From positions 736,001-800,000 of the forward strand of contig CAWBWI010000006.1 in NCBI GenBank assembly GCA_963792585.1: a DNA stretch of 64,000 nt, read 5' to 3'. Positions 5,322-52,690 of this stretch are shown here, one piece after another. The notes below the pieces were generated by a model. That model made no database searches, had not been told where the DNA came from, and saw nothing but the letters and a program-made list of their open reading frames with translations. Source of the stretch: Candidatus Eiseniibacteriota bacterium (lineage in GTDB: Bacteria > Eisenbacteria > RBG-16-71-46 > CAIMUX01 > VGJL01). Both the position numbers and the translations under genes were made by a program. Each line of letters begins with the position of its first letter. The first letter of the stretch is position 1.

Positions 5322-5407
5322 GTGCTGTCGCTTCTACAAACTCCGTCCGTCGGTCGCTCGACCTCCAGTCGGCGGCTTCGTCGCGCCCCCCCGGACAAGA
5401 GGCCCTC

Positions 5408-19624: not shown

Positions 19625-19722
19625 CATCGATGCGCGATGCGGGTCGACCCGGCAACGAAGACGATCCGCCTCTAGGGTCGTTCCAAGTAGGAAGCCATGG
19701 ACGTCAAACAAATGGGGTAGGG

Positions 19723-26786: not shown

Positions 26787-28007
26787 CTAATTGACGACCA
26801 CGAGGCGTCCTACGCTTGCTCCGTGTTCGCCCGCGAGGCGGATGAGGTAGTGTCCCGCCGCGAGGCGCCGGCCGTCCTCGCGTCGCGGCTCCCAGGTGAT
26901 CCGATACTCTCCCGCCGTCACGGGGCCGTCAGCGAGCTTTGCTACAGTCCGCCCGGCCACGTCGGTGACCGTGATCCGGAGATTCTCCGTGCCCGCCACG
27001 GCATAGGTCAGCTCCATCGAGGCACGGCAGGGGTTGGGAGCGATTCCGCCAATCGTGAGTCGTGCGGGATGCGCCATCTGCTGGTCGGAGGCGGAGGCGA
27101 CGGGTTCTCCGAATCGTTGAACGCGGTTGTTGTACTGATCGGCCACATAGATGGAACCTTCCAGCCCGATGCCGATCCCGATCGCACCGTTGAACTCACC
27201 CGGACCGCTGCCGAATGCGCCGAATGCATCGACCAGGTCGCCGGAGGTCGTGAAGACCCGAATCATGTTGTGGTTGAAGTCGGCGACCCACAGCTGGCCG
27301 AGTGTGTCCACCTCGATGTCGGTCCCACCGGAGGTCGACGCATCGAAGCTGGCGAGGTAGTCCCCTCCCGTCGTGAACTCCTCGACAACGGGCTGATCCC
27401 ACTGCACGACGTACACGATTCCGTCCACCTCGACCACGCCCGAGGTCTGGCTCCCTCCATTGCTGCTCCAATCGAGTAGGGAGACGCCGGTGGAGGTGTA
27501 CTTGTGCACGGAGAAGTCGGTGTAGCCCGACACATAGACGTCGCCGGCCGCGTCGACCGCCACGTGATCGGCATTCGTGCTCGGAATCGCCCACGAGAGA
27601 AGGAACGCGCCTTCGCTGGTGAACTTCTCGAGCCGCGCGCCGGCATAGTCGCAGATGTACGCCTCCCCGCTCGGGTCGAAGGCGATACCGTAGGGCGTGT
27701 GGAACTCTCCGTCGCCGCTCCCGGTGCCGCCGAATGCAAAGAGCAGCTGCCCGCCGGTGGGCGTATAGACGCGCACCGAATCGTCATCGCACGAGACCCA
27801 TACGCGACCCGAAGGATCGACGTCGACATCCTCCACCGAGGCGGGAACCTCCCATTCCTCGGCGTAGGGCGGGATGACGGCGCGTGCGTGGTGGGCGAAT
27901 CCGCCGGTGGCGGCGAGGCCCGCGAGCGAGACGAGCATGAAGTGCAGCGCATGGTGGATGCGCCGCGAGCCACCTCCCTCGAGGGGAAGGAAGAGACGTG
28001 GAAACAT
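26787..28007 (-). CDS. Secreted NHL-repeat beta-propeller with FlgD/T9SS-like tail
   Basis: GSGDGEFHTPYGIA, GSGPGEFNG..GI, ADQYNNRVQRF; tail APNP...DVAGRTV...GHYLIRL. Confidence 0.88.
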   Translation of the reverse strand: MFPRLFLPLEGGGSRRIHHALHFMLVSLAGLAATGGFAHHARAVIPPYAEEWEVPASVEDVDVDPSGRVWVSCDDDSVRVYTPTGGQLLFAFGGTGSGDGEFHTPYGIAFDPSGEAYICDYAGARLEKFTSEGAFLLSWAIPSTNADHVAVDAAGDVYVSGYTDFSVHKYTSTGVSLLDWSSNGGSQTSGVVEVDGIVYVVQWDQPVVEEFTTGGDYLASFDASTSGGTDIEVDTLGQLWVADFNHNMIRVFTTSGDLVDAFGAFGSGPGEFNGAIGIGIGLEGSIYVADQYNNRVQRFGEPVASASDQQMAHPARLTIGGIAPNPCRASMELTYAVAGTENLRITVTDVAGRTVAKLADGPVTAGEYRITWEPRREDGRRLAAGHYLIRLAGEHGASVGRLVVVN

Positions 28008-28250
28008 CGAAGCCCTCCTGTCCTTCTGCGGCGCTGTTGGGGAACGGGGGATCTTACTCGAATTCCACCCGAATCGGTGACTTGATTCGGATATCAGGTT
28101 GTAATTGACGAGTTTTTGTCGCGGTCGCCTGACCGGTTCGGTGCATGACGCTCGGCGCGAAGGATAGAGGATGGAGGGCGGTGCGCCCGCCTCTTACGTG
28201 CCCGCTTGCGACGGTCGGAAGGACGAGCTCCGAGGCTCCTGTGTGCCCGC

Positions 28251-29672
28251 TTACAGCTGATGCAAAGACGAGCTCGCAGGCTGGTGTGTCCCGGAGGATC
28301 GGCGCTCGACCGTCGGGAGGAGGAGACTGAACACGGAGCCCCTGCCGAGTTCGCTCCGCATTCGCAAGTCCCCTCCCATCCGCTGGGCGAGGCTCTTGGC
28401 GAGGGCAAGTCCGATCCCCAGGCCACCGATGGCCCGCGTGGTGGTTCCGTCCAGCTGGCGGAACGAGTCGAAGAGAACCGGGATCTGATCAGGGTCGATT
28501 CCCGGCCCATCGTCCTCGACTTCGATCTTGAGCCAGCTCTTGCTCTCCTCCTCAACGATCGCGGCCCGAAGGACGATGTGGGAGCCCTGAGGGGTGAACT
28601 TGACCGCGTTGTCGACGATCGCATCGAGAATCTGCCAGACCCGGCGCGCATCGAATCGCACCGACGGTCCGGCGCAATCCAATCGAATGGTAAACTCCCG
28701 CAGGCCGCCGACGATGCCGGGCAATCTGTCTCCGTAGAACTGCTCCAGCAGGGCCCGGACGTCTCCCGTCTGGATCTGGATATCGAGGTCGTCCCTCGAG
28801 ACATTCGAGAAATCGAGAAGTCGCTCGATGAGCGCCTTGAGCTTGCCGCTCTCCTCGATGGCGATCTTCAGGAAATCAGCTCTCGCCGTATTGTTCAAAT
28901 CCCCCAGCAGAAGCTCGAGGTACGCGATGACGATCGTGAGCGGCGTGCGGAGTTCGTGATTGACGTTGCTCAGGAACTGATTCTTCAGACGATCCAGTTC
29001 GTTCAGGTCCTCCGCCGCCTGACGGAGCTGCCGGTTCTTCTCGAGCAGGTTGTTGTAAAGGTTCGTATTCTCCAACGCCACGCCGAGCATTCCAAGGGAA
29101 CTCTGGATAGCCTGAAGGTCGACCGCCCGGAACGGTTCCCCGCTGATTCTGCCTCCTATGGCGACGAATCCGGTAAGCTTTCCATGGATCTGAACCGGCG
29201 CGAACAGCGCGAGACCCGTCTCTTCGACGAGTCTGCGATCCGCCAAGTTCATCGACTTCGCGAGGACCGCAGCCTCGACCGGATGGGGATCATCGAAAGC
29301 GCGCAGCGCGGCGGGAGAGACGAGCGCGGCGCCGATCGCAGGGACCCAGCGTCGCGGGATCCCATGGCTCCGCATGGACACGGGCGGCTTGATCGTCTCC
29401 GCGGGCAGGATCCAGAGCGCCGACTTGGATGTGCCCAGCTGCCCCATCAGGTTGAGGAGAACGCTGTCGATGATCTCGTACAGGCTCCTGGATAGAGCCA
29501 GTTCCTGGCCCAGCTCCAGAATCGAGCGCAGGCTGTGTTTCATCTGCGCAGCGACGCTCGTGAAGCCGTCCTCCGTCATCATCGGTTCGATCCCCGACGG
29601 GACCGAATCGGGATCAGGCGGCATTGCGCTCGCCGTAGGCTCCCGAGGTTCCATAGGCATTGCCTCGGGCAA
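28251..29672 (-). CDS. Cytoplasmic GAF-domain sensor histidine kinase (no receiver domain); exact start uncertain
   Basis: GAF region ending VALENTNLY; NHELRTPL H-box, DNAVKFT, DDGPGI, GGLGIGL. Confidence 0.92.
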   Translation of the reverse strand: MPEAMPMEPREPTASAMPPDPDSVPSGIEPMMTEDGFTSVAAQMKHSLRSILELGQELALSRSLYEIIDSVLLNLMGQLGTSKSALWILPAETIKPPVSMRSHGIPRRWVPAIGAALVSPAALRAFDDPHPVEAAVLAKSMNLADRRLVEETGLALFAPVQIHGKLTGFVAIGGRISGEPFRAVDLQAIQSSLGMLGVALENTNLYNNLLEKNRQLRQAAEDLNELDRLKNQFLSNVNHELRTPLTIVIAYLELLLGDLNNTARADFLKIAIEESGKLKALIERLLDFSNVSRDDLDIQIQTGDVRALLEQFYGDRLPGIVGGLREFTIRLDCAGPSVRFDARRVWQILDAIVDNAVKFTPQGSHIVLRAAIVEEESKSWLKIEVEDDGPGIDPDQIPVLFDSFRQLDGTTTRAIGGLGIGLALAKSLAQRMGGDLRMRSELGRGSVFSLLLPTVERRSSGTHQPASSSLHQL

Positions 29673-30012
29673 GCGCCTCGACCGCCACCACCTCGTCCCG
29701 ATCGATGCTCAGAAAGCCGTCCAGATTGAGCAGCTTCACCACCGAATCCACGGCGGTCGAGAGAGCGGCGAATCGAATGGAGAGACCCGACTCGTGGAAC
29801 TCCTCGACGAGGGCGAGGAGCGCCCCAATTCCGCTCGACGCGATGAAGACGACTTCCGAGAGATTCAAGACGAGACTCATGTGACGGTCCTTCACGTCAC
29901 GGCACTTCCGTAGCAGGTCGGGAGTCGTTCTCGCGTTCATCGTTCCGGACACGCGCAGAACGGCGGTCTGCGGTGGGAATGCGACTTCCGTCATCGAAAG
30001 ATCATCGGACAT
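29614..30012 (-). CDS. STAS anti-sigma-factor antagonist (RsbV/SpoIIAA-like)
   Basis: VLNLSEVVFIASSGIGALL with the phospho-acceptor Ser region. Confidence 0.9.
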   Translation of the reverse strand: MSDDLSMTEVAFPPQTAVLRVSGTMNARTTPDLLRKCRDVKDRHMSLVLNLSEVVFIASSGIGALLALVEEFHESGLSIRFAALSTAVDSVVKLLNLDGFLSIDRDEVVAVEALARGNAYGTSGAYGERNAA

Positions 30013-32227
30013 TGCTACAACTCCTCTGCTCGACGTTGAGGATTGTGGGATCGAAGACGAGGATCGTCGCGTTTCCGTCCCGGCTCGCGGGCTGGTAGAT
30101 GACCTGAGCCATCACCTTGTGGATGATGTCGAGGCCAAACCCGCGAGAGCGACGACGGACTTTCGGATCCCGGAGGTCGGAGGCTTCCCAGTTGTCGGGT
30201 GAGAAGGCCTTCCCATGATCCAGAATCACGAACGCGCCCGAAGGCGGAGAGTCCGGTCCGACGGCCGCATGCGCGTGCGCGTCGGCGACGGCCATCTCGG
30301 CGAAGTCGGCAGCCTTCTCCCCCGGGATCCACCAAACATTGAAAGTGCACTTGCTGTCCCCGCCATATCCGTGCTCCACGATGTTCGCGCAGGCCTCGTA
30401 GATCGCCGACGCCACCAACTGCATCGGCGTGGGCTCGAGATGCCGCAACTCGGGCAAGGATTCCAGCCAGCATGGGATTTCATCCATCTCGTCCAGAACC
30501 GCAGGCAGGTCCAGCCGGACGCCGCGCTCTCTTGCGAGCGTGATCCATCTCGATGGAGCACCTTCCATGTTCCGTTCCTTTCCGCTGTCCGACGGCGGTA
30601 CCAGTTCGAGCGACTGGGAGCGCTCGCGACTCACCACCAGGATCGTCTCGTCATCGCCGCGCGGCGTGCCTTCACGCCACTCGTCTAGGGCGAGACGGAG
30701 ACCGTCGATGACCGAAGCGCACCCCTCCGCGGCCTTCGCTTGAAGAACCGCGACCATCCGCTCGAAGTCGAACTGCGTCTTTCCCGAGAGGTCGAATGCT
30801 TCGTTGACGCCGTCGGTATACTGAACCAGCATGTCCCCTTGCTCGAGGGAGATCGCTTCATCGGAAAGGGTGCGACGAATCGCCCCGCCCCGGATCGCCG
30901 CGAGCGGGATTCCCTTCGAACGAACCTGGTCGATCTGGCGCGTTGCCGCACGGTAGATCATCAATGGTTGGTGACCCGCCGAGGCGAAGGTCAGGATCCC
31001 GGTGGCCGGATCGAGGATTCCGTAGAACATCGTCACGAAGCTGCCCGGGTTCAGGGTCTCGCCGAGCCGCTGGTCGAGCTGAGCGAGCATGGCGGTGGGC
31101 GAATCGTACTCGTCCCGGTATGCGCGCAGGAGCACCGAGAGCATCGACATCACGAGACAACCGGCAAGACCCTTGCCGGATACGTCCGCGACCGCGATCG
31201 CGATCCGGCCGTCGGCCAGACGGAGGACATCGTAGTAGTCCCCCCCGACCTCGGAGGCCGCCCGGTGGGCTCCATTGATGAGGAAGCTTCCGGCTACCGT
31301 CGGCGACTTGGGGAGCAGAGACGCCTGCATGTCCCTGGCAAGGTCCATCTCGTGGGACAGCCGCTCCTTCTCCACCATTTCTTCCTGGGCGACCTTGAGG
31401 CGCGATGCCATCTCGTCCACCGCGTCGCCGAGCATCCCGAGTTCGGTGCGGCTGCGTAGACGGATCGGCGCGTCCAGGTTTCCCGCTCCGATCCGCTCAA
31501 GGCCGGCCCGGAGGGAACCGATCGGTCGCAGCAGAACCGTCATGAGAACGAGAGCCGCGGCAACGCCGAGGCACAGCACGATTGCGAGAATCAGGGTCTG
31601 CTGCCGGTGCGCGGCGGCGATGATCCCCGTGATGTAGTCCCTTCGCAGGCCGACGGCGGCCGTGCCGATCGTCGGTCCTCCGACCCGGTTGACCGGCGCC
31701 GACGCAATCACCGTTTCCTTGTTGCCGACCAGGCTCTCTCCGGAGCGTAGCGTGATACCGCTCGCCTCGGGTCTGAGATCCGACGGCAGGACCATCTTCG
31801 TCCCGAGCATCCGGGGATCCGCATGACCCTGGATGATCCCCTCATGGTTGGCGACCACGGCCAGGCTGAGTTCCGGCTGATCGGACTGCATCTCCTTGGC
31901 CAGAGGGAGCAGGACGAGTTCCGGGAGATCGGTGAGGAGTGCGGAGGAGCTGGCGAGGGCCAGATTCCGCGCCTCGAGCAGGAGCCGGGTTTCGATCTCG
32001 GAGGTGAGCGCAACTCGGGCGTTCCGCTCCTGAACGGAGCCGACGGACAACACAGCGATCGCGGTGATGCCGACGGCGCTCGAAGTCGCGATCAGGCGAA
32101 TGCCGAAGATCCGCTTTCTCTTCGGCGGATGCGACCCGGCCGACGTACGGCCGGTCTTGCGGCCGCTTCGACGCGCGCCGCGCTCGTCGTTCAAGTCGGA
32201 GTCCGTTCGTTCCATGTTTGCGCCCAT
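30002..32227 (-). CDS. Membrane protein: periplasmic sensor + HAMP + SpoIIE/PP2C phosphatase + RsbW-type Ser kinase
   Basis: Two TM helices; HAMP (IGAGNLD..., ELGMLG); VGGDYYD, ADVSGKG, YTDGV, GDDET; C-terminal EACANIVEHGY, DHGKAF, RGFGL. Confidence 0.9.
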   Translation of the reverse strand: MGANMERTDSDLNDERGARRSGRKTGRTSAGSHPPKRKRIFGIRLIATSSAVGITAIAVLSVGSVQERNARVALTSEIETRLLLEARNLALASSSALLTDLPELVLLPLAKEMQSDQPELSLAVVANHEGIIQGHADPRMLGTKMVLPSDLRPEASGITLRSGESLVGNKETVIASAPVNRVGGPTIGTAAVGLRRDYITGIIAAAHRQQTLILAIVLCLGVAAALVLMTVLLRPIGSLRAGLERIGAGNLDAPIRLRSRTELGMLGDAVDEMASRLKVAQEEMVEKERLSHEMDLARDMQASLLPKSPTVAGSFLINGAHRAASEVGGDYYDVLRLADGRIAIAVADVSGKGLAGCLVMSMLSVLLRAYRDEYDSPTAMLAQLDQRLGETLNPGSFVTMFYGILDPATGILTFASAGHQPLMIYRAATRQIDQVRSKGIPLAAIRGGAIRRTLSDEAISLEQGDMLVQYTDGVNEAFDLSGKTQFDFERMVAVLQAKAAEGCASVIDGLRLALDEWREGTPRGDDETILVVSRERSQSLELVPPSDSGKERNMEGAPSRWITLARERGVRLDLPAVLDEMDEIPCWLESLPELRHLEPTPMQLVASAIYEACANIVEHGYGGDSKCTFNVWWIPGEKAADFAEMAVADAHAHAAVGPDSPPSGAFVILDHGKAFSPDNWEASDLRDPKVRRRSRGFGLDIIHKVMAQVIYQPASRDGNATILVFDPTILNVEQRSCSNVR

Positions 32228-34290
32228 CAGTTCTTGCCCTCCAGGATTTCCCGGGTTCGGGAGAGCTGCTGCCGCGCTCCGGCGAGATAGCCGATCGCTT
32301 TTTCATCGGTCGGATCCAGGCGCAGCGCCTTCTCCCAGTAGGTCACCGCGTCTTCCAGCCTGCCCGCTGCGAAGGAATCCATGCCTCCCATCAGGTACTC
32401 GCGCTTCAGGTATTCCCTCACCTGGAGGTATTCCGGATCGATCGAGAAGACCAGCTCCCAATAGCGCAGCGCATCCTGTGTCCGCTCGGCCTTCATCGAC
32501 TCGATGCCCCGGCGGTAGAGATCCTCGATCTCGCGCTTCTGCTGTGGTGTGATGGCCGCTTGCCGCGCTGCCGGATTCGATTCTCCAAGGGCCCACTGAT
32601 TCAGCACCGGAAGGTGTCCACTCGGACCGGCATCCTTCGGCGCCGACAAGGAGCCGCTCCTGGCGCCTGCCAGGTTGCGCTCCGCGACCTCGAGACCTTT
32701 GGCCGAGGGATTCAGCGCTCGCGCCTGGGCAAGCAGGTCGGAGGCCTCGTCGTAACGGCCGCGCTTCGCAAGCCGATCCGCCTGATCCAGTAGCTCGTCG
32801 GTGCGCTTCCCGATGGCCTTGCGCGTCCGGTCGAGCATGGCCGCCGCTTCCCGGTCACCGGGCTCCAGCTTCAGGAGCTTCGTCAAGCGATCGCGGGCCG
32901 CGGGTAGATCGCCCGCGCTGAATGCATCCAGGGCTCCCGCGAATTCGCGCTTGAGCAGCTCCGAACGCGCCGCCTTTCGATCACTCTCTTTTCGACAACG
33001 CTCGGCCCCCTGAGTGGCCATGCTGTCGTCCGGGCTGAATCCAAGAGCCCGCGTGTACGCGAGGGCGGCCTCTGCAAAGTCGCCCGTCGTCTCCAGCTCC
33101 GCGGCCTTCTTCCTCCAGCAGTCGGTTTCCATTTCCGTGACGTCCGCACGTCCGGGCGTGAGCGCTTCGACGAGGCCGAGTTGTTCGAGGGCATCGTCGT
33201 GACGACCTTCGCGGTGCGCGAGCTCCGCCGCCCCGAACAGCTCCTCCGCCCGCTCGGCCTGACGCTTCTCGTATGCCTGAGCCAGACGCGAGGCCAGAGC
33301 CTGCTCCTCGGCGAGCCGTGAGGCCACGCGCCGCTCCTCGGTCGTCGCCCCCAAACGAAGGGAAACTCCGAGCCGGTGCACCGTCCCCAGGTCGTTGTCG
33401 GCGAAAAGGTAGTCGAGGAGAACGCCGTGCCACTGGATGCCCGCTCCTGCGGTCGGCTGTCCGCCATCGAAACCGCCCCGCAAGGTGACCAACGGATGGA
33501 AACGCAGCTCGAGCCCGGCGTGGGCGCGCGGGGTCATCTCGGCGGTCCGCTCGATCTCGACCGAGGCGAGGAGCGCACCCCCGCTCAGGAACGACCGCCC
33601 ATATGCGGCGCCGAGGCGAACGCTCATCGGATCGGCGACGTTGTCCTTGTCCAGACGGAGGGTCGGCTCGACCACATTGCGGAGTGCGACACCGATTGTC
33701 ATGCCCCTCATCCAATCCTGTTGAACCCCGAGAACCGCATCGGGCCTCAGCAGGAGCCCCACATCCGCACCCATGCCGCTCGCGCTGAAGCCGGCCAGGC
33801 TCTGCTGCCGGAACTTGAAGGCGGCGCCGGCGCTCAAGCCGTCCATGAGTGTGCGGCCGTAGCCGATCGAGATCTCCGTGTCGCTCGACGTCAGATCATC
33901 GTCGTAGACGCTGTTGCGGGCGTCTCGTCCCTCGATCCCGCCGACTCCGAAGGAACGAACCGACGCGGCGGCGGTCCCCAGACGCCAGCTCGGCAGCGCG
34001 AGGGCGAAGTAGCTCTCCGTCATGTCGAGACCGTAGAGCTTGGACCAGCTCGCCTGGAATTCGCGCCGGGGAACGATGCCGAGGCCCCCGGGATTCCAGA
34101 TGGACGCGCTCGCGTCGTCGGCCACGGCCACGAATGCCCCGCCGAGGGCCAGGGCGCGATTGCCGGCGCCGTAGGCGAAGACCGAGCGGGTTCCGCCATC
34201 ATCGGCGGCGTCGACCAGCGAGGCCGAGATCGCGGCGATCGACAATCCCGCGATCAGGACGAGGATCGGTCGGAGACGTGCGCTTCTCAT
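32227..34290 (-). CDS. PorV/PorQ-family outer-membrane barrel fused to C-terminal coiled-coil/TPR domain
   Basis: Signal peptide; GNRALALGGAFVAVADDASASIWNPGGL, ADVGLL, LRGG...DYLF.DNDLGTVHRLGVSLR; TPR helices (YWEKALRLDP). Confidence 0.88.
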   Translation of the reverse strand: MRSARLRPILVLIAGLSIAAISASLVDAADDGGTRSVFAYGAGNRALALGGAFVAVADDASASIWNPGGLGIVPRREFQASWSKLYGLDMTESYFALALPSWRLGTAAASVRSFGVGGIEGRDARNSVYDDDLTSSDTEISIGYGRTLMDGLSAGAAFKFRQQSLAGFSASGMGADVGLLLRPDAVLGVQQDWMRGMTIGVALRNVVEPTLRLDKDNVADPMSVRLGAAYGRSFLSGGALLASVEIERTAEMTPRAHAGLELRFHPLVTLRGGFDGGQPTAGAGIQWHGVLLDYLFADNDLGTVHRLGVSLRLGATTEERRVASRLAEEQALASRLAQAYEKRQAERAEELFGAAELAHREGRHDDALEQLGLVEALTPGRADVTEMETDCWRKKAAELETTGDFAEAALAYTRALGFSPDDSMATQGAERCRKESDRKAARSELLKREFAGALDAFSAGDLPAARDRLTKLLKLEPGDREAAAMLDRTRKAIGKRTDELLDQADRLAKRGRYDEASDLLAQARALNPSAKGLEVAERNLAGARSGSLSAPKDAGPSGHLPVLNQWALGESNPAARQAAITPQQKREIEDLYRRGIESMKAERTQDALRYWELVFSIDPEYLQVREYLKREYLMGGMDSFAAGRLEDAVTYWEKALRLDPTDEKAIGYLAGARQQLSRTREILEGKN

Positions 34291-37200
34291 CGCACCACCG
34301 CCACTTTGCGGAGCAATCGTTGCTTCTCTCCGCCATCGGTCTGCACGACGAGCTCCGCTATGTAGACCCCGTTGACCACGACGGAACCTCGGCCGTTCCG
34401 GCCATCCCACCGCGAGGACTGATGCAACCCGGCCGGCTGGCGCTCTGCCTCCAGCAAGGTGGTCACCGCCTCGCCCCGCGACGACCAGATCCGGAGGGTC
34501 ACGAGCGCATCGGAGGGGAGGTAGTAGACGAAGGATGTCTCCTCACGCCCGGCGCCGAACGGATTCGGGAAGTTCCCGTAGCTCTCCTCCAGCGACCGGC
34601 TACTGAAAGATCCGTAGTCGGTCCAGAGGGGGAACACCTGGCCGCTGGCCGCCCTCGCCTCGATCGCGAGCAGGGCTCCCTCGGGCTGCACGATTCCGAT
34701 GTCCGCCTTCTCCCATCCCAACCGGAGCTGCGGGAATGACACGTCCTCCCGCGGCCGGATGCGGACCTCGATCGTGGCGTGCCCTCCCGGCTCCAGGACG
34801 AGAGGGCTGCTGAACACGAGCATCGACGTCGTCGAATCCGAACTGAGCTCCGCGCTCTCGGCGCGCAGCGACCCGCCCTCGTAGGCCTCGACCCGTCCTG
34901 CAGCGGCTCCCAGCGAGACCGCTGCTCCCACACCGTCGGCCGCACGGACCCGGAGGTGATCGACCCGTATCGATCCGGAACCCGGAGGCGCCGGATTGCT
35001 GAGGGTGAGCGCGGCGGCGGCGCATTCACGGCCGTCAGCGGCGATCGCCGCGGGCATCTTGCTTTCCAGCGCGATCACGAGTTCCCGCGCGGGGGGCCTG
35101 AGCCGCGTGACCCCGGAAAGGAGGGGAAGCTCCACGCCCGCATCGGGCTCGATGGCGAGCGGGGCGCCGCTGTTCGCATCGACGGCCTGTACGTTCGACC
35201 CGGAGATGGCGATCTCGAAGTACGCCGCCGGAGCGGCCGCGCGAACGCTGACGACCAATCGAAACGTCGCGATCTCCTCCGGATCCAGGATGATCCCATC
35301 GATGGGAAGCTCCACGGAGTGACGGGAGGAGTTCATGTCGGTCACCGAGGTGATCTCCCGGTCGTCCACGAAGAACCCGATCTTCAAGAGGTAGATCGAT
35401 GGATCCAGGATCGCCCGCTCCTCATTGCGGCACTCGACCGTCAGGGCGCTCGGCCGAATCCGGGAGGTTCCGGGGGTCCCCGGGTGGCGGAACGCGCCGG
35501 TCATCGCCGTGACATCACGTTCTCCGACGGTGACGACCGTGGGGAAGGCCGGGGCGGAGCGCACGACCAGGGTCGTCGCCGGCCTCTCGATGATGACCGC
35601 ACTCCCATCGAAGGGGCTGGAGAGGTACCGGGGCGGGACCGGGTTGTTCGTGTTGGCGTCCCTGATGTCGAAGGACGACTCCCCGCGCAAACGAATCCGG
35701 AAGGCGCCATGAAGGACCCCTTCCGCGATGTCTCCCGCGATCGTCAGGGTGATCGGCGTGTTGACCGGGAGGGTGAGGGGGTTGACGAACTGCAGGGCGA
35801 GCGAGTCCCCCGCGCCCGCGCCGATCGGTCGATCGATGAGGGTCTGCAGAAGTGTCCGGACACGGATCGCCCGGATCAAACTACCCGGATCCTGAAGCGG
35901 GGTCCCATCCGGGTCCACGACCTCGATCGCGAAGCCGCCGACGCGAACCTCGGACGAGATCCCACCGATGCCGATGTTCTCGAGGGTGAGGGCCAGGAGG
36001 GTCACATCCGGTTGCCCCGGCCCGACCCGCGTCGTATCGGCATCCTGCCTGGAAACCTCTACCTGGGTCGCCTCGGCGACGAGACGGGCGAGCCCCGAGC
36101 GGATCGGATAGGTGCGCTCTTTGAGGTCGAGGGTCACCGGCGCGCGGTTGGTGACATCCTCGGCCCGGAACCAGCTGCCGTCCAGGATCGTCGCCCGGAA
36201 GGTCGCCGCGGTCGCATCGGGCGAGACATCGAGCTCGAGGTTCAGTGTTGCCGGCTCGAAGGGGGTGATCACCACGGGGGTCGCGAGCGTCAGGTCGATC
36301 TCCGCGCCGGAGGTCTCGAGGCTGGACGGTCCCTTGTCGAGGAAGATGCGATTTCCTTCGCGGACCGCGATTCGGGTCAGCATCTCGGCGGGGACGATCC
36401 CCCGGCCCAGCTCATCCTCCAAGCGAATCCGCAGACCGGTCAGCTTGACGCTCGAGCCTTGCTCACCGCCGGGATTTCGGCAGGTGAGGCTGAGCGGAAC
36501 GATGCCCGTTTGCCCGCGGTTGACCGAGAATGGCGGGGTCGAGACGGCGAATAGTTCCAGTTCCTCTGCCTGCGTATAGACGTAGTGGGTTCCGCTGGAC
36601 GATTCCATGGACCGCCGCGGCAGCTCGGTCGTCTCTCCCGTTCCCTCCGCATAGCCTGTGAGACGGGCTTCGCCGGCCGTACGGGCCGTGCAGCTCCACT
36701 CGAATTGACCGGTCTCCCCCGGCGCGAGCGTCAGCGCCGATGGGCTCGGACCTTCGATGATGTCCACGGAGATTGGTCCGGGCGTCTCTACGAGGATTGG
36801 AGCGATCCCCACGATGGTTTCATCGCCCACGTTTTGAACGACCATTCGGGCTTCGAAGACCCCGCCCGCCGTGGAGGCGGCGGGATTCGTCGTCAGGGTC
36901 GTCAGCAGGGGCGCCGAACTCAGGAGAATCACTTCGGGATTCTCGAGGGGCATATCGATGGGACCATCGTTGGTCGACTGCACCGTGAGACCGTTCAGAG
37001 GTATGGCGAGCTGGATCGTGGCGTGCTGGGAGATGACATCCGCGGCCCGCACGGAGACGAAGAAACGCGCGCCGTTGAGGGGAAGGCGTTCCTGCAGCGG
37101 TCCGCTCGTCCACCCATCACCGCCCCACGTCAAGGTGCCCAGGAAGAGGTCGCTTCCGTCCATCGGGGAATAGACGCCGTCTCCCCCATCCCGCCAGAGG

Positions 37201-40200
37201 GCCACCTCTGCGATTTGGGTGGGTCCCGCCGTCCCCGTATTGTACAAACGGATGGAGTTGAGGAAGTCTTCCAGATAGCCGTTCGACGGGAGGGAGAAGT
37301 CCATTGCGACAACCGGTCCCTGGCCGGGACCCAGGGTCGCAACGCCGCTGCCGAAGTTGACGATCTGCCGCGTCACCATCCCGTCCACGATCCAACGCGC
37401 CCCGGAATCGATCGGCCACTCCGCCACGGCCCCGATCGGTTCCGCGAAGTCCAGGGCGAGCGGCTCGGCAATGGTCGCCGCGAGCGCGTCTCCGTCGGCG
37501 GCGTCCCTGGTGGACACGTCCGCGGTGAGGAAGAGGTGGCGGGACGCATGGGCCGCGATCGCGATCGCGAAACCGCGCATCACGGCCTTTCCACTCGGAA
37601 AACGCGACCGATGCGAGCCCGGGACCGTCGCCCTCGCTGTTGAAGACGCCGTCCTCCCCGTTGTCCAGGTGCAACGTCACCACGTCGCAGTCCGAGTCGA
37701 GATCGCTTCGCGAACCCGCTCCGATCCCGGAGTTGGTGAAGGTGACGCCGGTCAGCGTTTGCGGCGCGTCGTATGTGTTGGTCACGACCATGTGCAGCAG
37801 CAGAACGCCCCGGTCGCCCGGATGCACGACCCCGGGATCGATCGTTTCGGCCACGACGGTGAGTCGATTGGTCCCGGAGATGACGTGCGAGGTGGGGTCC
37901 TCGACGGCGCGATCGATGGGGCCGTCGTCGCCGGTGGCCATCCCTACGGCGACATCGGGCTCCGAAGGAAGACAGAAGCGGATCGAGCGACCTTCCCGGG
38001 CGAAACCGCTGACGTCGACGCTGGCGAAAACACGGAGTCCGGACATCGGAACCTGCTCGGAAAGCGCAGTGATCTCCCAGCGTGCCCCGGTGTTGACCAT
38101 CGATCCCAGCGCCCGGTCCTGGTAGCTCTCGAATGCCCCGTCTCCGTCGTCGACCCATATCTCGACCTTCGAGATGTCGGAACCAGGGGTGGCCGTGCCG
38201 AGGTTGACGAGATCCAGTCGGGTCAGCAGGTCCTCCTCGTAACCGTTCGGTGGGAGGGTCACGTCGAGAACGAGGTTTCGCGTCGATCCGGCGGTGAAGC
38301 TGCTCGACGGGGTCGGGTGCATCGTGATCTGGTCGGCGGCCATGCCGTCGACGACGTACGAGCCGACGGGATCGAGTGGCCATTCGGCGGACACCGATAC
38401 CGCGCGGCTGAATCCAAGGTCCTCGGCGCCGACCAGGCGAAGGTCGAACTCGTCTCCGTCGCGCGCCTCGAGCGAAGGGGCGGCCTGCAACAGAATCGAG
38501 AGCGTCTGCCTCGGCTCGATGGCCACGTTCAGGCTTCCGAACACGGCCTTTCCGTTTGCGAAGGATGCGGCGCCCAAGGGCGCGGATACGGAGTCCCGGC
38601 CCGAATTGTCGCCGCCCGCGATCATGACGTCGATTGCGCCCCAATCCTGGTCCAGCTGCGCGCGCGTCCCCGGGCCCACGGTCGTGTTCTCGAATGTCAG
38701 ACTTCTCAAGGTCTCCGGCCGTGCCGTGAAGTTGATGAGTTGGAGTCGGATGATTTCCTGGGGGGCGCCTCCGGGCAACAGCGACCGACGGATCGGCTGT
38801 TCTGCCGCGACGGTGATGACGTTGTCGCTCCCCTCGCGGATGATCAAGGAGTTGGGATTCGCGACCGCCGCGTCGACGGGACCGCCGGCCCCGCTCGCCA
38901 TCTCCAGACCGTCGTTGGGCGGCTGGGGCAGGACGAGACGGATGGTGCGGTCCGGAGCGGCGTCCGGCTGGATGTCCACGGATGCGTAGAGGCGCAGCCC
39001 CCCGATCGGGACTCCGATCGACAATCCGGCCAGGACCCATGCAGACCCGTTCCAGCTTGCGCTTCCAAGGAGGAGATCGTCCGCGCCCCCCTCGTCGAAG
39101 ATCCCGTTTCCGCCGTCCGTCCAAATCTTCATGGCCCCGATGTCGCCGTGAGGCTGCGCATCTCCCAGGTTCTGCAGCCGGATCGTGTCCAGGATGTCGG
39201 CTTCGTAACCGTTGCAGGGTGCGACGAAGTTCAACGCGAGGCGGTCGGCCTCACCGGTAAAGACCGTCGTCCCGGGAACGGGGGTGGACGCGATCTGGGC
39301 AGCGGATAATCCGCGCACGGGGAACGAGCCCGCGGGATCCAGAGGCCAGCTCGCATGCAGATTCACGGGACTGGAGAAGGAGAAGCTCTCCGCGCCTGTG
39401 ATCCGGACGTCCAGGAGATCCCCGTCCTTGCATTGATCGACGCGCTTCCGGAGATAGAGAGCACCAGGGTCGTCCCCGGATCGAGCCCAACCGCGAGGTG
39501 GGTGAAGGTGGCGATCCCGTTGCGGACCGTTGCGCGACCGAGAACCGTGTCGTCGCCGTCGCCCCCGCCCAACCCCAAGGAAAGCGAAGTCCAGTCGGCA
39601 TCGAGTTGGGCCGCGGTCCCGGTTCCCGTCGTCTTGTTCGCCACGGTCAGCCCGTTCAACGAGGTTGCGACGTCCGATGTGTTTTCCAGGGTCAAGTGAA
39701 GGATCTCGATCCCGGCGGATCCGGGGAGAAGGGTCTCTCCGGTCTGCGCCTGGCTCGTGACCCGGATCCCGGGCAGCGCCTCCTGAACCTGGATCTGGGC
39801 GGAGGCGAGGTTATTGCCGCTCGCCGGATCTCCCGGGCTTGCGTCCGTGATCGCCGCCATGTTGATGATCGTGGAGCCAGCCTCGCCGGCATCCACGGAT
39901 GCGTTGATGACGAGCGTCGCCGATGCCAGCCTCGCCAGGCTTCCCACGGTCCACTGGCCCGTGCCCATCGCGTAACCGCCCTGGCTCGGAGAACTCGACT
40001 GGTAGGTCACGCCCTGCGGAAGCAGGTCGGTAACGACCACGCCCGTGGCGACGTCGGGGCCCTGATTGACAAGGGTCAGGGTGTAGCGGACCGGATCTCC
40101 CGCCGTCGGTGTCGCGTTGTCGACGACCATTACGAGGGCGAGATCGGCGCCCGTAACGGTGAATGCGACCGATGCGGAATTGTTGCCCGTGTTCGGGTCA

Positions 40201-42998
40201 CCCTGATCCGCTTCCGTGATGCTCGCGGTATCGGTGATCGTTTGTCCGACGCCGCCCGCGTTGACCGTCGCGGTGAGGGTGAGGGTCGCACCGGATCCTT
40301 GTCCGAGGCTTCCTACGGTCCAGCGGCCGGTGCCGGATGCGTAGCTTCCCTGCGTCGCGCTATTCGAGACATAGGTCAAGCCGGAGGGAATCTGGTCCCT
40401 GACCACCACGCCCGTCGCTGCGTACGGTCCCAGGTTGGTCAGCGTGACGGTGTAGTGGACCGTCTCGCCGATGGTGGCGGTCGGACGATCCACCGACAGC
40501 GTGAGGCCCAGGTCCGCGCCTTGTACGTTGATCGTGGTGGAGGCGCTGTTGTTCCCGGATACCGGGTCGCCGAGATTCGAAGCGGAAATTCGCGCCGTGT
40601 TGACGATCGCGGAGCCGGAGGTTCCTGCATTGACGGATGCGACGAGGGAGAGGGTGGCAGTCGTCCCGACCGACAGATCGCCGACCGACCAGAGTCCGCT
40701 CCCCACGATGTAGGTGCCCTGACTGGGGGCGTTCGAGACATGCGTCAGACCGGTCGGGAGGAGGTCGGTGAGCGCGACGCCGGTGGTCGCGTTGGGGCCG
40801 CTGTTTCGCACCGTGACGGTGTAGGTCACTCGATCGCCTTCGTCCGGCGACGGATTGTCCACGGTCATCCCCACGGCCAGATCGGCCCCCGTCACATCGA
40901 TGCTGGCGGACGCCGTGTTGTTGCCCGAGATCGGATCTTCCTGGTTTGCCGCAGTGATGGTGGCGACGTTCGTGATCCTCGTTCCGCTCACGTCGGAGGC
41001 CACGATCGCCGTGATCGTGAGCGTGGCCGTAGAGCCGGCATTCAGGTCCCCGACGGTCCAGAGGCCGGTGCCGGAAACGTATTCTCCTTTGCTCGGATTC
41101 GCGGACGTGAAGCTGACGCCGGCCGGCAGGAGATCGGTAACCGCAACCCCCGAGGAGTTGTTGGGCCCGCTGTTGGCCAGCGTGACGGTGTAATGGATCG
41201 TCTCTCCGGTGCTCGGCGTGGGGTGGTCGACCGTCTTCAGGAGGCCTAAGTCCGCGCTCTGGACGACGATCGATGCGGACGCTGTGTTGTTTCCCGGGAC
41301 AGGATCGACGGGCTCCACCGCACCGATGGCGGCGGTGTTAGTAACCGTGCTCCCACCCGTGCCGACGTTGACGCTGGCGGTCAGGATCAAGGTCTCGCTC
41401 GACGTCTTGTTCAATGCGCCGATGGTCCAGACGCCTGTGTCGGGAGCATAGGCGCCGTGGCTTGGATTGCTCGAGACGAAGGTCAGACCGACGGGAAGGA
41501 GATCCGTGACCGTCACGCCCGTGGCAGCCTCGGGTCCGTTGTTGGACGCGGTGAGGGTGTACTGGATCGTGTCCCCAACGTTCGGGGTCGGCCGATCGAC
41601 CGACATGGTGATGCCCAGATCGGCGCTCCGGACGACGAGGGCTGCGGAGGCGCTGTTGTTGGCCGAGTTCGAGTCAGTCTGGTCCGCAGCGGAGACGGCG
41701 GCGGTGTTGGTGATCGTCTGTCCGCCGGTACCGGCGTTGACCGATGCCTGGATGGTCAAGATCGCGCTTGCGCCTGCGTTGAGGCTCCCGACGCTCCAGA
41801 TGCCGGTCGCGTTGGAATAGGACCCCTGGCCTGCGTTGTTCGAGACGTATGTCACTCCGACGGGGAGAGCGTCGGTGAGCGCGATTCCGGTTCCGCCGTC
41901 GGGGCCGTTGTTCAAGACCGTGATGGTGTACTCGACCGTGTCCCCGACGTTCGGATCGGATGGATCGACCGACATGGTCACCGCGAGGTCCGCGGTGGGC
42001 GGACGCGTCTCGAGGAACGCTACATAATAGTAGGACTCGGACCAGTTGTTGACGCTCGAACTCGACCCGAGCTGGAATCCGTTCGGGAGGAACTGCTGGA
42101 TGGCGTTGCTGAACCCGGTGCCGTGGTCGAGGTAGAGACTGAAGTCGCCCACCATGGCGGCCGAACGGCACACCGGCGCGCTCGTGCTCCAGGCGCCCTT
42201 CGTGATGAAGAACGAAGACTGGAACCCGACGACGGTGATGTCGCGGTTGTCGGCGGCGTTCCCGGGATAGTAGCCCGAGTGCGTGACCCCGGCCTGCTCC
42301 GCCCAGGCGACGTAGTGGAACGCCCTGCCCGATTCGTTGACGGAGTTGTCGGATCCGATCACGAATCCATCCGAGACGAAGGAACGAATCCGGTTGGACA
42401 CCTCCGCCGACGAGTCGAAGCGGAGGCTGGCGTTGCTTGCCTGGTTGCTGAAGCGCTGCCCGGCGTGTTGGGACCTATCCGGCAGGATGATCATGTAGGC
42501 CGGCTGGAGGCCCAGACCGGTGATGGTCCGGTTGCTGGATCCGTTGCCGGTATAGGATCCCACGACCATCTGACCCGATGAGGAGCGAAACGCCGTCCAG
42601 TAGTACGTGACGCCGGACGCGTTCACGTCGCTGTCATCACCGACGCTGAAACCGTCCGCATCCAGGGAGCGGATCCGTTTGTTCGAGAGTCCCGTGGCCG
42701 AGCCGAGCGGCTTCGTTGCGTCTCCGACCATGGTCGAGGTTCGCGCGACGCCCTGATCGCTCACGTTGCCCTTGATGATGACGAAGTCGGGTTGGAAGCC
42801 GAGGCCTGTGATGCTTCGAGAACTCATCCCGTCGCCGACGTAGCTGCCCGTCTTCATGACGTAGGCGGCTTGCGGATCGGCCGCAGACCGCCCTGCGCCG
42901 ACGAACAAGGCAGCGACGACCATGAGCAGGGCGACGGCGCAAGAGACGCGCCGCCCCGCTCCGACTGTTGCGCCGATGCGAGGTCGGATCTTCCTCAT
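34287..42998 (-). CDS. Giant (~2,903 aa) secreted repeat surface protein/adhesin; two compensating 1-nt frameshifts at 39426-39427 and 37597-37598
   Basis: Signal peptide; 3 GSY.GNG...GFQP repeats; 6 DUF11 repeats; 3 pairs of alternating Ig-like repeats; FlgD-type tail NFPNPF...WDGRNGRG...NGVY. The three ORFs join in repeat register after one-base corrections. Confidence 0.85.
39790..41996 (-). repeat. Six tandem DUF11 repeats (~122 aa each) in the giant protein
   Basis: ADL...VD...P..G....YT.T..N.GP....G...TD.LP.G.T......G.Y...G.W.VG.L...NN.AS consensus occurs six times. Confidence 0.9.
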
Positions 42999-43317
42999 CA
43001 GCTTTGAATTCGACAGCCGGTGGCGGGAACCTGAGCCGATTGCGGCTCCTTCGTGGGCGGTTGAGGCGGTGCTGCTTTTCCGGACCCGGGGACGAGTTCA
43101 GTTCAACTGCTTGTCGTGAAATGAGTTACTGGGCGTGCGCGCTCTCTGGGAGCGGGTTCGCTGGGCGAACTTCCTCGGAGGCGGCCCTAATGATTGTGCC
43201 GATCGTTCGCGTTCCGACCCGGTCCACGCCGGCAGCCATGGAGCCAGCAATGCAATTCGCCGAGGCGATCCACAGCTACCGGCACGGATGATCGGACGGG
43301 ACCTTGCGCTGCGAGCG

Positions 43318-44649
43318 CTACTTCAGCGCGAAGCGGATCGGCACGGAAACCCAGCAGGCGACCGGCTGGCCGTCGGTCGTGGCCGGCGTGAAAACCCACT
43401 GCCGGGCTGCATCGATCGCCGCATCGTTGAACGCCGGGTGACCCTCTACGGCCTCCATGACGAGAATCTGACCCACGCTTCCGCTCGCCGTGACGCGCAT
43501 GCGGAGGGTCACCGTCCCCTCGATGCCGTTCTTGCGCTCCTCGGCCGGATAGACCGGCTGGATCATCTTGACGAGAACGGGCATCGTCTCCACCTTCTGC
43601 AACTCGGCCGGAGAACCGGACGAGTCCTCTCCCGCCAGCAAGGGCGCAGGCAGGAGGGTGACTACGGCGATGAGGAGGAGAACGGCCCCCAGAATCAGAC
43701 GGTGTCGGTTCATCATCGAATACCTCCACGGACACGAGATCCGTTCGAAACGCACGCGGAGGCCGGGGCCTCCGCCCAACCCGGCAGAAAGCGGATCGAC
43801 GATCGGGAACAGGTTTCGGCGAAGGGTCGCGGCGAGGACCTTTGCGTAGGTCTCCCGCGCGAGGCCGGAACGCACCGCTTGCTCGTCACAGACGAGTTCA
43901 GCGGATTCGCACAGCCTGCGCACCACGTAGGCGACCGGCGGATAGAAGAAGAGGAAGGCGCCGCAGCAGCGCATCGCCGCCGCGCGCAATGGATCGCGCC
44001 GACGACGGTGGCCATCCTCGTGGAGGAGGAGCGCGCGCAGTTCATCGGCATCCGCGTGGTGGAGAAGCTCCGAGGGAACCAGGATGCGCGGACGGAAGAG
44101 GCCCGCGACATAGGGCAAGGATGCGCTCCGCGATGCGCGCACGGCGTGGGCGGGGATCGCCGCGCTCGCGAGGGCTGCCGTCAGGCGAGTCCGTGGCCCG
44201 CCGGGCAGTCGATCGATAGGGACGCCGTGGTCCCGGGCGGAGTGGGCGCAGTCGCGGAGGAGTCTTCGCATTCTCATCGCGAAGCCGATTCCCCAGATCG
44301 CGGTGAGCGCCACCGCGAGGATCCCGATCCAATGGACGGATGCGAGGGCGCGCGGGTCCGGGAACCCGGATGGATTGAGAACAGCGCGGACCGGCGCCAG
44401 GAGAAATCCCTCCGCACCGTGGGTCAGGCCGGCGGTCCGGGTGAGCGCAAGGATCGGCGCGCCGAGAATCGAGACGGGGAGCAGGATCTTCAGGAACGCG
44501 GCGCCCCAGAGGGCCTGGGTCGCCCGCGCGGGCGCGAAACGCATGGCCCGGGCGAGGAGGAAGATCACGAGAAGCACGATCGAGGTTTGCCACAGGTGAT
44601 AGGCCAGGCCGATCCAGAAGGCCGCGAGCCACTCGCCCAGGGGTGTCAT
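43318..44649 (-). CDS. BlaR1-like M56 metallopeptidase fused to TonB C-terminal domain
   Basis: PYVAGLFRPRILVP, HEDGHRRRRD, ELVCDE; C-terminal PVYPAEERKNGIEGTV...AARQWVFTPA...VPIRFAL. Confidence 0.92.
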   Translation of the reverse strand: MTPLGEWLAAFWIGLAYHLWQTSIVLLVIFLLARAMRFAPARATQALWGAAFLKILLPVSILGAPILALTRTAGLTHGAEGFLLAPVRAVLNPSGFPDPRALASVHWIGILAVALTAIWGIGFAMRMRRLLRDCAHSARDHGVPIDRLPGGPRTRLTAALASAAIPAHAVRASRSASLPYVAGLFRPRILVPSELLHHADADELRALLLHEDGHRRRRDPLRAAAMRCCGAFLFFYPPVAYVVRRLCESAELVCDEQAVRSGLARETYAKVLAATLRRNLFPIVDPLSAGLGGGPGLRVRFERISCPWRYSMMNRHRLILGAVLLLIAVVTLLPAPLLAGEDSSGSPAELQKVETMPVLVKMIQPVYPAEERKNGIEGTVTLRMRVTASGSVGQILVMEAVEGHPAFNDAAIDAARQWVFTPATTDGQPVACWVSVPIRFALK

Positions 44650-45053
44650 GGCTTCCTCCGTCTCGGCCGCATCGTCTTCCCATCGTCCCCGTTGCCAAGC
44701 TGCTCCTCGATCGCCCGCAGGTCATCGAGAGAGATTGCCTCCATCTCGGCCAAGTGCGCGACGAGCGGTCCGCCGTGCCCGTCGAAGAGCCCGTCGATCA
44801 AACGGCGGACCTCACGACGGATCATCGTCTTGGGAGCGACCGTCGAGCGGTAGACCCACGCCCTCCCCTCACGACGGACCCGGGCGACCGCGCCTTTCTC
44901 CTCGAGGCGTTCGAAGATTTTGCGCACCGTCGAGTAGCTCGGCGCGTTCGGGAGGTCGGTCTGGACATCACGCATCGAGGCCTCGCCGCGCGCCCAGAGA
45001 CGGCGCAGGCACTGAAGCTCGAAGCGGGACAGTTCAGGTATCTGGCTGCTCAC
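44646..45053 (-). CDS. BlaI/MecI/CopY-family repressor
   Basis: LSRFELQCLRRLW, SYSTVRKIFERLEEKG; ATGA overlap with the M56 gene. Confidence 0.92.
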   Translation of the reverse strand: MSSQIPELSRFELQCLRRLWARGEASMRDVQTDLPNAPSYSTVRKIFERLEEKGAVARVRREGRAWVYRSTVAPKTMIRREVRRLIDGLFDGHGGPLVAHLAEMEAISLDDLRAIEEQLGNGDDGKTMRPRRRKP

Positions 45054-45088
45054 GGACCCTCCCTCCATCTCCCCGACCGGGGACTATC

Positions 45089-47403: not shown

Positions 47404-47454
47404 GCAAGGAGACGAGACGATCGCCGTCCGGTGATCCTGAGGAGACCCGCGAGC

Positions 47455-52688: not shown

Positions 52689-52690
52689 AA

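Follow-up and report, generated by a model that had tools for sequence, protein, structure and literature searches.

A conserved gene cluster of Eisenbacteria with a type IX secretion-type giant surface protein, a PorV-family barrel bearing a TPR arm and a Cache-HAMP sensor: a candidate module for sensing at the cell surface

The stretch of DNA analysed here, hereafter the window, comprises 64,000 nucleotides (nt) from a Candidatus Eiseniibacteriota bacterium (G000:C6:736001-800000). Its G+C content is about 65%, and it belongs to a 5.4 Mb genome assembled in 7 contigs and 84% complete. Positions 28251-42998 harbour five coding units, all co-directional on the minus strand, as are all the features of the cluster described below. 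They encode, in this order, a giant surface protein of the type exported by type IX secretion systems (T9SSs), hereafter the cargo; a barrel protein of the PorV family extended by a tetratricopeptide repeat (TPR) arm, hereafter PorV-TPR; an inner-membrane sensor; a single-domain STAS protein; and a soluble histidine kinase (HK). This article addresses the products of the cluster, its conservation among relatives, and the possibility that the sensor reads the state of the cargo and of its barrel.

Five co-directional genes and their products

The genes of the cluster are tightly packed. The stop codon of the cargo gene and the start codon of the PorV-TPR gene are combined in an ATGA at 34287-34290, the true start of PorV-TPR being the ATG at 34290, which opens a signal peptide beginning with MRSARL, and not the GTG at 34410. 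A TGATG (32225-32229) forms the junction between the PorV-TPR and sensor genes, and the sensor and STAS genes overlap by 11 nt (30002-30012). Both the common direction of the five genes and these three junctions had been put forward in an original prediction on this DNA, and the coordinates of the open reading frames (ORFs) bear them out. The overlap that it also proposed between the STAS and HK genes is likely, but hinges on the start picked for the kinase, since the STAS gene stops at 29614 and the candidate HK starts are spread over 29672-29582.

A scan of 27800-43400 for promoters and terminators returned one promoter-like and one terminator-like site, which does not exceed the shuffled expectation. 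Contigs from RNA libraries of a strain about 95% identical span 28267-42766 and bridge the HK/STAS/sensor/PorV-TPR junctions as well as the PorV-TPR/cargo junction. They provide weak evidence for co-expression of the cluster, as such libraries may contain DNA and a contig is not equal to a transcript.

The domain content proposed originally was recovered by Pfam and NCBIfam for all five products. Furthermore, the pattern found by a hydropathy scan fits the idea that these products occupy, in gene order, the surface, the outer membrane, the inner membrane and the cytoplasm. Indeed, signal-peptide-like segments are found at residues 12-40 of the cargo and 3-29 of PorV-TPR, the sensor has two transmembrane (TM) segments (residues 40-65 and 208-240) and the HK has none.

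PorV-TPR (P0001) is a protein of 687 residues. Its first part (residues 1-315; 33346-34290) includes the signal peptide and a 14-strand barrel that NCBIfam model NF033709 and Foldseek assign to the PorV/PorQ family. Its second part (residues 316-687; 32230-33345) is a tail of about 370 residues made of a 44-residue helix, helical/TPR repeats, a linker and a TPR module. Residues 81-351 of the long ORF match NF033709 at 106.3 bits, above its cut-off of 90 (108.3 bits in the genome search). As the protein stays below the equivalog cut-offs of PorV (NF033710, 29.4 vs 250 bits), PorQ (NF033711, 46.5 vs 220 bits) and PorV2 (NF052325, 37.5 vs 325 bits), it is, by these sequence scores, a distinct paralogue and not the housekeeping PorV. 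Among the eight PorV-family matches of the genome, it is the only one with an extended frame.

An AlphaFold2 (AF2) model of PorV-TPR, built from an alignment of 32 sequences, has a mean predicted local distance difference test (pLDDT) score of 88.8. After a short segment at the N-terminus, it displays 14 main strands (residues 76-313), followed in the tail by the 44-residue helix, helical repeats up to residue 546, a disordered linker (residues 546-581) and a confidently modelled TPR module (residues 582-684; 32239-32547). This C-terminal module is also the most conserved segment of the protein, with a mean identity of 52% vs 41% for the whole tail. Foldseek places two PorV chains of the Flavobacterium johnsoniae translocon, 8gl6_F and 6h3i_F, at ranks 1 and 2 (E 1e-10 and 2e-9; TMt 0.64-0.65); FadL, TodX and TbuX rank lower. 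The sequence profile of PorV-TPR matches the PorV chain 6h3i_F at E 8e-11. Since an even number of strands puts both termini on the same side, which is the periplasm in PorV, the tail is predicted to be periplasmic. The model thus places it on the PorV-like periplasmic side and not outside the cell, the position that the original prediction had named as contrary to its proposal.

The sensor (P0002; 30002-32227) displays the Pfam architecture sCache_3_2-HAMP-SpoIIE(PP2C)-HATPase_c_2. The first TM segment (residues 40-65) is followed by a periplasmic sCache domain (residues 66-209; 31601-32032), and the second one by the HAMP domain (31394-31543), the PP2C/SpoIIE domain (30626-31213; SpoIIE E 9e-40) and an RsbW-like HATPase_c_2 domain (30056-30502; E 7.5e-11). 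The motifs GGD, DV[SA]GK[GS], TDG and DD of the PP2C domain occur without exception in the 24 rows of the sensor alignment that have this domain, and the N and G boxes of the RsbW-like kinase in all 22 rows that have HATPase_c_2, P0002 included; we take these motifs to be the catalytic ones. The STAS protein (29614-30012; STAS E 2.7e-11) is of the anti-sigma-antagonist type. The serine of its F-I-A-S-S-G motif, presumably the equivalent of SpoIIAA Ser58, is invariant in the 27 aligned sequences, among which that of the window. The cluster encodes three parts of a partner-switching module, i.e. a PP2C phosphatase with its catalytic motifs, an RsbW-like kinase and a STAS protein with a candidate phospho-serine.

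The HK (28251-29672, with a start uncertain between 29582 and 29672) carries HisKA (28803-28985) and HATPase_c (28311-28652) domains recognized by Pfam, preceded by an N-terminal domain without Pfam name; its counterpart in locus L055 bears a GAF_2 domain. Domain scans of the cluster ORFs and of flanking ORFs in the window detected no receiver domain, so that no response regulator accompanies this HisKA and HATPase_c kinase among the ORFs scanned. These scans found neither a sigma or anti-sigma factor nor a DNA-binding output in the cluster.

The cargo gene (34287-42998) would encode about 2903 residues if read through. The original prediction treated it as one gene. In the window it is not a single ORF: two single-base frameshifts, examined below, break it into ORFs 39363-42998, 37117-39366 and 34287-37583 (frames 2/0/2). 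The C-terminal 1098 residues (34290-37583) are conserved, with 34-45% identity over their full length in 26 relatives, and correspond to a predicted all-beta multi-domain stalk without family name. The AF2 model of this part (pLDDT 88.2) contains only strands, the domain folds being characterized by DSSP of the model only. A sequence search against the PDB gave no match for it, and it falls in an unnamed Atlas cluster. Its end (34290-34589) is a C-terminal sorting domain (CTD) that is FlgD_ig-type and T9SS-like: the last 100 residues, scanned alone, score 30 bits for a FlgD_ig cut-off of 27. The C-terminus is also similar to that of the PorU model and, in the Pfam and NCBIfam scans, does not reach Por_Secre_tail (PF18962/TIGR04183). 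Invariant columns of the cargo alignment are most densely clustered in the CTD.

By contrast with this conserved part, a variable N-terminal add-on made of DUF11/CARDB-type Ig-like repeats (approximately 39790-41993; DUF11 E 1e-203, six stretches) is absent from most relatives, whose cargo has about 1540-1660 residues. This block and the further N-terminal repeats are additions specific to certain lineages. The protein had been called a giant adhesin. A giant DUF11/all-beta protein with a T9SS-type CTD is indeed what the gene encodes, but the role of adhesin is a guess from architecture and is unproven.

Export of the cargo by a T9SS, which its CTD suggests, requires consideration of the rest of the genome. 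PorU sortase is found there at 569 bits for a cut-off of 420, and a PorV-family match (G000:C1:871323-872228) lies about 3 kb from it, a position that makes it the best candidate for the housekeeping PorV. SprA-like pieces score below cut-off and are broken over several frames. Dozens of C-terminal matches (PorU model positions of about 960-1090) are present among the 51 matches listed for the genome. The family search gave no match to GldM (TIGR03517), for which the control was silent too. Globally, the host genome probably encodes a T9SS.

Distribution of the cluster and exchange of its outputs

The census of the phylum covered 206 Candidatus Eisenbacteria/Eiseniibacteriota genomes, the present one (G000) included. 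The tail of PorV-TPR was found in 46 of them (45 relatives and G000) and the C-terminal 704 residues of the cargo in 48. With a threshold of E 1e-60, the search for sensor orthologues retained 55 genomes, about a dozen of the matches being weaker paralogues (E of about 1e-61 to 1e-64, 30-34% identity) that correspond to the sensor-PP2C part only. In 42 of the 45 tail-bearing relatives, the sensor gene comes immediately downstream of the tail in the same orientation; in two of the remaining three (G131 and G147) tail and sensor are on different contigs, and the third (G074) has only a weak tail match. The cargo gene adjoins the PorV-TPR gene in 39 of the 45 (37 co-linear and 2 inverted), and in the other six the genes are split over contigs. 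The two relatives with an inverted cargo gene, G129 and G150, were considered as loci without adjacent cargo, and this was rejected since the inverted gene abuts the four-gene block (divergent in G129, convergent in G150).

Detailed comparison of 22 loci from 21 relatives gives the same picture. Twenty of them hold PorV-TPR, with the sensor as next gene in all 20, the cargo upstream in 19 (the exception, L032, reaches a contig end) and a homologous HK after STAS in 18. A PAS-type kinase replaces this HK in L025, and the second copy of the module in G148 has none. This closed genome carries two copies (L022 and L023) about 30 kb apart in G148:C1:3703850-3739125, the copy devoid of HK being followed by a gene encoding a 5'-3' exonuclease. 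The genes that flank the module vary among relatives and, therefore, what is conserved is the block and not its surroundings.

The fusion of barrel and TPR tail extends beyond the phylum. A scan of one genome per species found it in 23 loci; a homologue of the N-terminal part of the sensor follows in 22, and the last one ends 24 nt after PorV-TPR (an extra match, L058, is TPR only). A metagenome scan added 23 loci, 20 of which have the sensor next, the other three ending before that position. The same gene order occurs in loci labelled Krumholzibacteriia, Latescibacterota, Zixiibacteriota and Ignavibacteriales. The original prediction had made its case depend on the synteny of the signalling genes with the cargo/PorV-TPR pair in relatives, and the 42 of 45 tail-bearing relatives in which this synteny is found support a functional coupling between them.

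Various loci keep the sensory part and display another output. In L045, L047, L052 and L053, two of which are labelled Krumholzibacteriia, PorV-TPR is followed by an sCache/HAMP-HD-GYP protein, without STAS or HK. In L062 and L066, the sensor is a hybrid histidine kinase (sCache-HAMP-HisKA-HATPase-REC), and L067 gives the same tblastn pattern as these two loci. More distant versions (25-27% identity; labels Zixiibacteriota and Ignavibacteriales) consist of a sensor-PP2C followed by STAS-RsbW, STAS and GAF kinase proteins or, alternatively, of a single very large fusion protein. In L054, from a distant relative, PorV-TPR is followed by a gene (L054:2045-6460, plus strand) for a 1471-residue protein with an RsbW-like kinase, sCache, HAMP, PP2C, HTH and three STAS domains, i.e. 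an entire partner switch in a single protein.

The periplasmic domain of the sensor (144 residues) has no paralogue in its own genome, where the next match has an E value of 1.9. Compared with the neighbours of PorV-TPR whose output is swapped, it shows 33-48% identity (E 2e-19 to 3e-36), and it matches these sensors as well as it matches many of those of the PP2C type. Since this domain stays with PorV-TPR through the exchange of output, the conserved link is the one that unites cargo, barrel-TPR and sensor, the cytoplasmic output being modular. The retention of this triad while the output is exchanged constitutes the strongest argument that the input of the sensor would relate to the outer-membrane pair.

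How the sensor may be coupled to the outer-membrane pair

The preferred reading, tentative and falling a little short of an even call, is that of a conserved module in which a T9SS-type giant surface protein and a dedicated PorV-family barrel with a predicted periplasmic TPR arm are read by a dedicated Cache-HAMP sensor via the terminal TPR module. The cargo would be exported by Sec and then by the T9SS, and a PorV-type barrel of its own would handle or hold it. The arm of this barrel, with its long helix, TPR solenoid, flexible linker and terminal module, could span much of the periplasm. It may present its conserved terminal TPR module to the Cache domain of the sensor, a step as tentative as the reading as a whole. 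From what is known of these families, HAMP would then shift the balance between the PP2C phosphatase and the RsbW-like kinase acting on the STAS serine, and STAS could bind and modulate the adjacent soluble HK, whose role as switched partner is suggested by gene adjacency alone. The direction of signalling, the phosphorylation of STAS and the downstream regulon are likewise inferred. A more specific form of the proposal, which is possible and rather more doubtful, makes the module a physical receptor for the status of a surface fibre, of a new trans-envelope class: the arm would gate the Cache domain and the cell would thereby sense whether the fibre is secreted, anchored or loaded, with outputs that would be interchangeable across candidate phyla of the Fibrobacteres-Chlorobi-Bacteroidetes (FCB) group. 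The coupling proposed originally is thus supported by synteny and by the predicted periplasmic position of the tail, and is extended by the exchange of outputs on a conserved periplasmic domain.

Several observations, given in this and the next three paragraphs, weigh against this reading. Gene adjacency alone cannot tell physical coupling from co-regulation, and the distribution of the module is patchy, five genomes of the same family being devoid of it. Furthermore, sCache_3_2 domains usually bind small molecules. An alternative considered unlikely is that no physical coupling exists: the ligand of the Cache domain would be a small molecule from outside, and the module would be a local regulator located beside surface-protein genes that it controls or with which it is co-expressed. 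A mirror-tree analysis of 20 sequences (L023, L025, L034, L042, L047 and L055 left out) gives some ground to this view, as the distance matrices of the tail and of the periplasmic domain correlate at r 0.75, no better than other pairs of segments (0.45-0.87). All segments therefore co-vary and there is no specific signal of co-evolution between tail and Cache domain above background.

The relative G008 also favours an absence of coupling. It retains intact genes for the sensor and STAS, but only a 46-residue relic of the PorV-TPR tail and fragments of the HK gene, so that the sensor can persist without the outer-membrane pair, at least temporarily. In this locus (L030, G008:C35:41500-61499, around positions 2260-5900), cargo and barrel genes are gone and the HK fragments lie downstream, beside an HNH endonuclease gene. 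The locus was considered as a stand-alone sensor/STAS architecture and this was rejected, the tail relic and the HK fragments indicating a decayed copy of the module; L040 is a decayed locus that resembles it. In G044, no remnant of the tail was found in the 471 nt that precede the sensor gene up to the contig end. What a local regulator leaves poorly explained is the lack of any DNA-binding output in the cluster and an adjacency that outlasts both inversions of the cargo gene and the exchange of whole output domains. In addition, the periplasmic domain forms a family of its own, encountered only beside PorV-TPR in the loci examined, a linkage tighter than that usual between a regulator and its targets.

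The ligand of the sensor could also be the cargo itself, through its CTD or as unsecreted periplasmic cargo, and the TPR arm would then serve secretion and not signalling, either by docking to the SprA/SprE/SkpA translocon or by acting as a chaperone for a very large cargo. This alternative, regarded as quite unlikely, has a precedent: in Porphyromonas gingivalis, according to the available text of PMC12152298, the CTD of the T9SS cargo PorA binds the sensor kinase PorY in the periplasm and activates it, and hence PorXY-SigP. Other T9SS components point in the same direction. Periplasmic TPR proteins, PorW/SprE and PorE, are described as parts of the machine, and the available text of PMC10994853 reports that the periplasmic face of PorV touches SkpA in the extended translocon, in which SprE makes a periplasmic extension. 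The translocon could therefore be the docking site of the arm, in place of the sensor. The concentration of invariant columns in the CTD agrees with a ligand role of this domain, and the joint travel of cargo, PorV-TPR and sensor fits it as well as it fits a sensor that reads the arm. A cargo ligand, however, does not explain why one of eight PorV paralogues carries a 370-residue arm, nor why conservation within PorV-TPR is highest in the terminal module of this arm.

In the present assembly the cargo gene bears frameshifts, and contigs of the nearly identical sequencing runs X1/X2 (at least 99% identity) miss both frameshift sites. Both facts would suit a module that is decaying in the present genome, with a cargo that is a true pseudogene and a cluster that does not work as a unit; such decay does occur in G008 and L040. 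At the first site (39419-39425), one base is missing in the window compared with the related strain and the frame changes within a repeat motif; at the second (37590-37600), the window has one extra base near 37594. Both sites permit a one-base slip in a short homopolymer. DNA contigs of the strain about 95% identical (X3 and X4) have a C added behind 39419 or a G behind 39423 and one base fewer at 37594, and RNA-library contigs agree, with a C added behind 39419 (X17 and X18) and one base fewer at 37595 (X17-X19). Beyond these two sites, no indel is listed over the 15 kb compared with the RNA-library contigs. A three-frame comparison indicates that the internal repeat motif carries on past each break in another frame, and the tblastn homology of the cargo to its relatives is continuous over both breaks. 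Wherever a relative has the complete gene, one ORF of 1538-3978 residues encodes the cargo (2321-3515 in four relatives).

Other genes of the same assembly are also split, and the cargo frameshifts are therefore read as likely assembly indel errors. In the window, a GH38 alpha-mannosidase gene is divided between the overlapping ORFs 49406-51211 and 50793-52688 (plus strand), each of which holds a portion of the GH38 N-terminal domain; this is apparently another frameshift of the assembly. Outside the window, a SprA-like gene (G000:C4:17198-21309, minus strand) gives six pieces of model match in different frames, over at least five open frames of 150-1103 residues, which suggests many assembly indel errors or decay. 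The compensating nature of the two single-base indels in short homopolymers, the 8.7 kb without any other stop or indel, the intact frame of the strain about 95% identical and these additional broken genes make a cargo pseudogene improbable. In one RNA-library contig of low depth (X17, depth 2), 37815 is connected to 41965 through 22 other letters, so that 4149 bases of the cargo gene, rich in repeats, are skipped. This probably reflects either an artefactual collapse of repeats or, in another strain, a shorter allele.

If the sensor does read the cargo and its barrel through the arm, the module would connect type IX secretion to signalling in a new way. To our knowledge, the sensing of surface-protein export, anchoring or engagement is understood for a few systems only (Rcs, Cpx/NlpE, FecA-type systems and, recently, PorA-PorXY), and the module would be a genetically compact T9SS case, conserved in dozens of genomes. 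It offers well-defined parts for tests, namely the arm-bearing barrel and the private Cache domain, and its three alternative outputs amount to a natural domain-swap experiment. The analysis also defines a PorV-TPR fusion family and a nameless cargo family of 1100 all-beta residues in Eisenbacteria, Krumholzibacteria and neighbouring phyla, of which we know of no cultured members. It points to a T9SS-linked surface structure that is evidently under close regulation in these soil and bioreactor organisms.

Besides the cluster, the window carries genes that are not part of the conserved module. Immediately upstream, a gene encoding a BlaI-type repressor (Penicillinase_R, 44646-45068) is followed by one encoding a BlaR1/M56 peptidase-TonB_C fusion (43318-44649), both on the minus strand; this pair (43318-45068) is not kept beside the module in relatives. 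Directly downstream of the HK gene lies a gene for an NHL-repeat propeller, likewise not part of the module of relatives. FlgD_ig-type C-terminal domains are found on two further proteins of the window (26787-28007, minus strand, and 19630-21969, plus strand), one of which is this NHL-repeat propeller; these two proteins presumably belong to the T9SS cargo as well. Genes for glycan degradation follow one another at 45282-55280 (plus strand). They encode GH130, a CBM9 protein, an SSF transporter, GH38, a PNGase F-like protein and GH20, and together look like a locus for the utilization of N-glycans or mannosides. An insertion sequence is represented by an intact DDE transposase gene (DDE_Tnp_1_4, E 1e-157) at 9611-11014 (minus strand).

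Comparison with known systems

The original prediction held that no system with this combination had been described. In agreement with it, none was found in the literature searched, most subscription journals lying outside it, and neither was a fusion of a PorV barrel with a TPR arm. In none of the systems compared below does a private Cache sensor accompany a PorV-family barrel that has a TPR arm.

The closest signalling parallel is that of PorA-PorXY-SigP from P. gingivalis. As described in the available text of PMC12152298, it likewise ties a CTD-bearing T9SS cargo to an inner-membrane sensor and conveys information on secretion or cargo to the cytoplasm. In that text it has no PorV-TPR fusion, and its sensor is the kinase PorY, which acts with PorX and an extracytoplasmic function (ECF) sigma factor. 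The present module, by contrast, has a Cache-HAMP sensor with PP2C and RsbW-like domains, a STAS protein and a soluble HK, replaced in relatives by HD-GYP or hybrid HK outputs.

SprF belongs to the PorP/SprF family and not to the PorV/PorQ family. The original prediction had invoked SprF/SprB as a precedent for a PorV-like paralogue dedicated to a large neighbouring cargo, which misfiles it: PorP/SprF-like shuttles, with Type B CTDs, are treated apart from PorV (Type A) in the available text of PMC12618676. These shuttles resemble the present case in that the gene for a large surface protein neighbours that of a dedicated outer-membrane barrel (PMC12618676, PMC9143113). Nevertheless, they use another family of barrels and a Type B CTD instead of a FlgD_ig/Type-A-like one, and no signalling genes are attached to them in the available texts. 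The PorQ-PorZ and PorV-PorU attachment complexes, as presented in the available part of PMC12365241, are better analogues. The PorV/PorQ barrels (6H3I, 8GL6) share with PorV-TPR the NCBIfam family and the 14-strand fold, and the adjacency of PorV-TPR to a CTD cargo gene is a further likeness to them. The difference lies in the 370-residue arm: the solved PorV chains that were matched have 345-367 residues, about the size of the barrel part of PorV-TPR alone, to which the TPR arm is an addition.

On the cytoplasmic side, HsbR-HsbA and SypE-SypA are partner-switching modules with a bifunctional kinase/phosphatase. The present cluster resembles them, as well as SiaABCD, by the association of a PP2C domain and an RsbW-like kinase in one protein, by its single-domain STAS protein and by the lack of sigma and anti-sigma factors in the locus. 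The match of the sensor to the NCBIfam SiaA model is far below cut-off. Unlike these modules, the present cluster has a periplasmic Cache-HAMP input instead of a receiver domain, the presumed target of its STAS protein is a soluble HK, and it is fixed beside the genes for a T9SS cargo and its barrel.

Finally, in FecA-FecR-FecI, RcsF-IgaA-Rcs and NlpE-CpxA, an outer-membrane component with a periplasmic part signals a surface event to an inner-membrane protein. The likeness of these systems to the present module is one of logic only. Indeed, parts of the FecA/FecR type, i.e. a TonB-dependent transducer, an N-terminal signalling domain and an anti-sigma/ECF sigma factor pair, were not found by Pfam and NCBIfam in the five proteins. 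The arm of PorV-TPR is C-terminal and built of TPRs, its barrel is of the T9SS carrier type, and the receiver of the putative signal would be a Cache domain.

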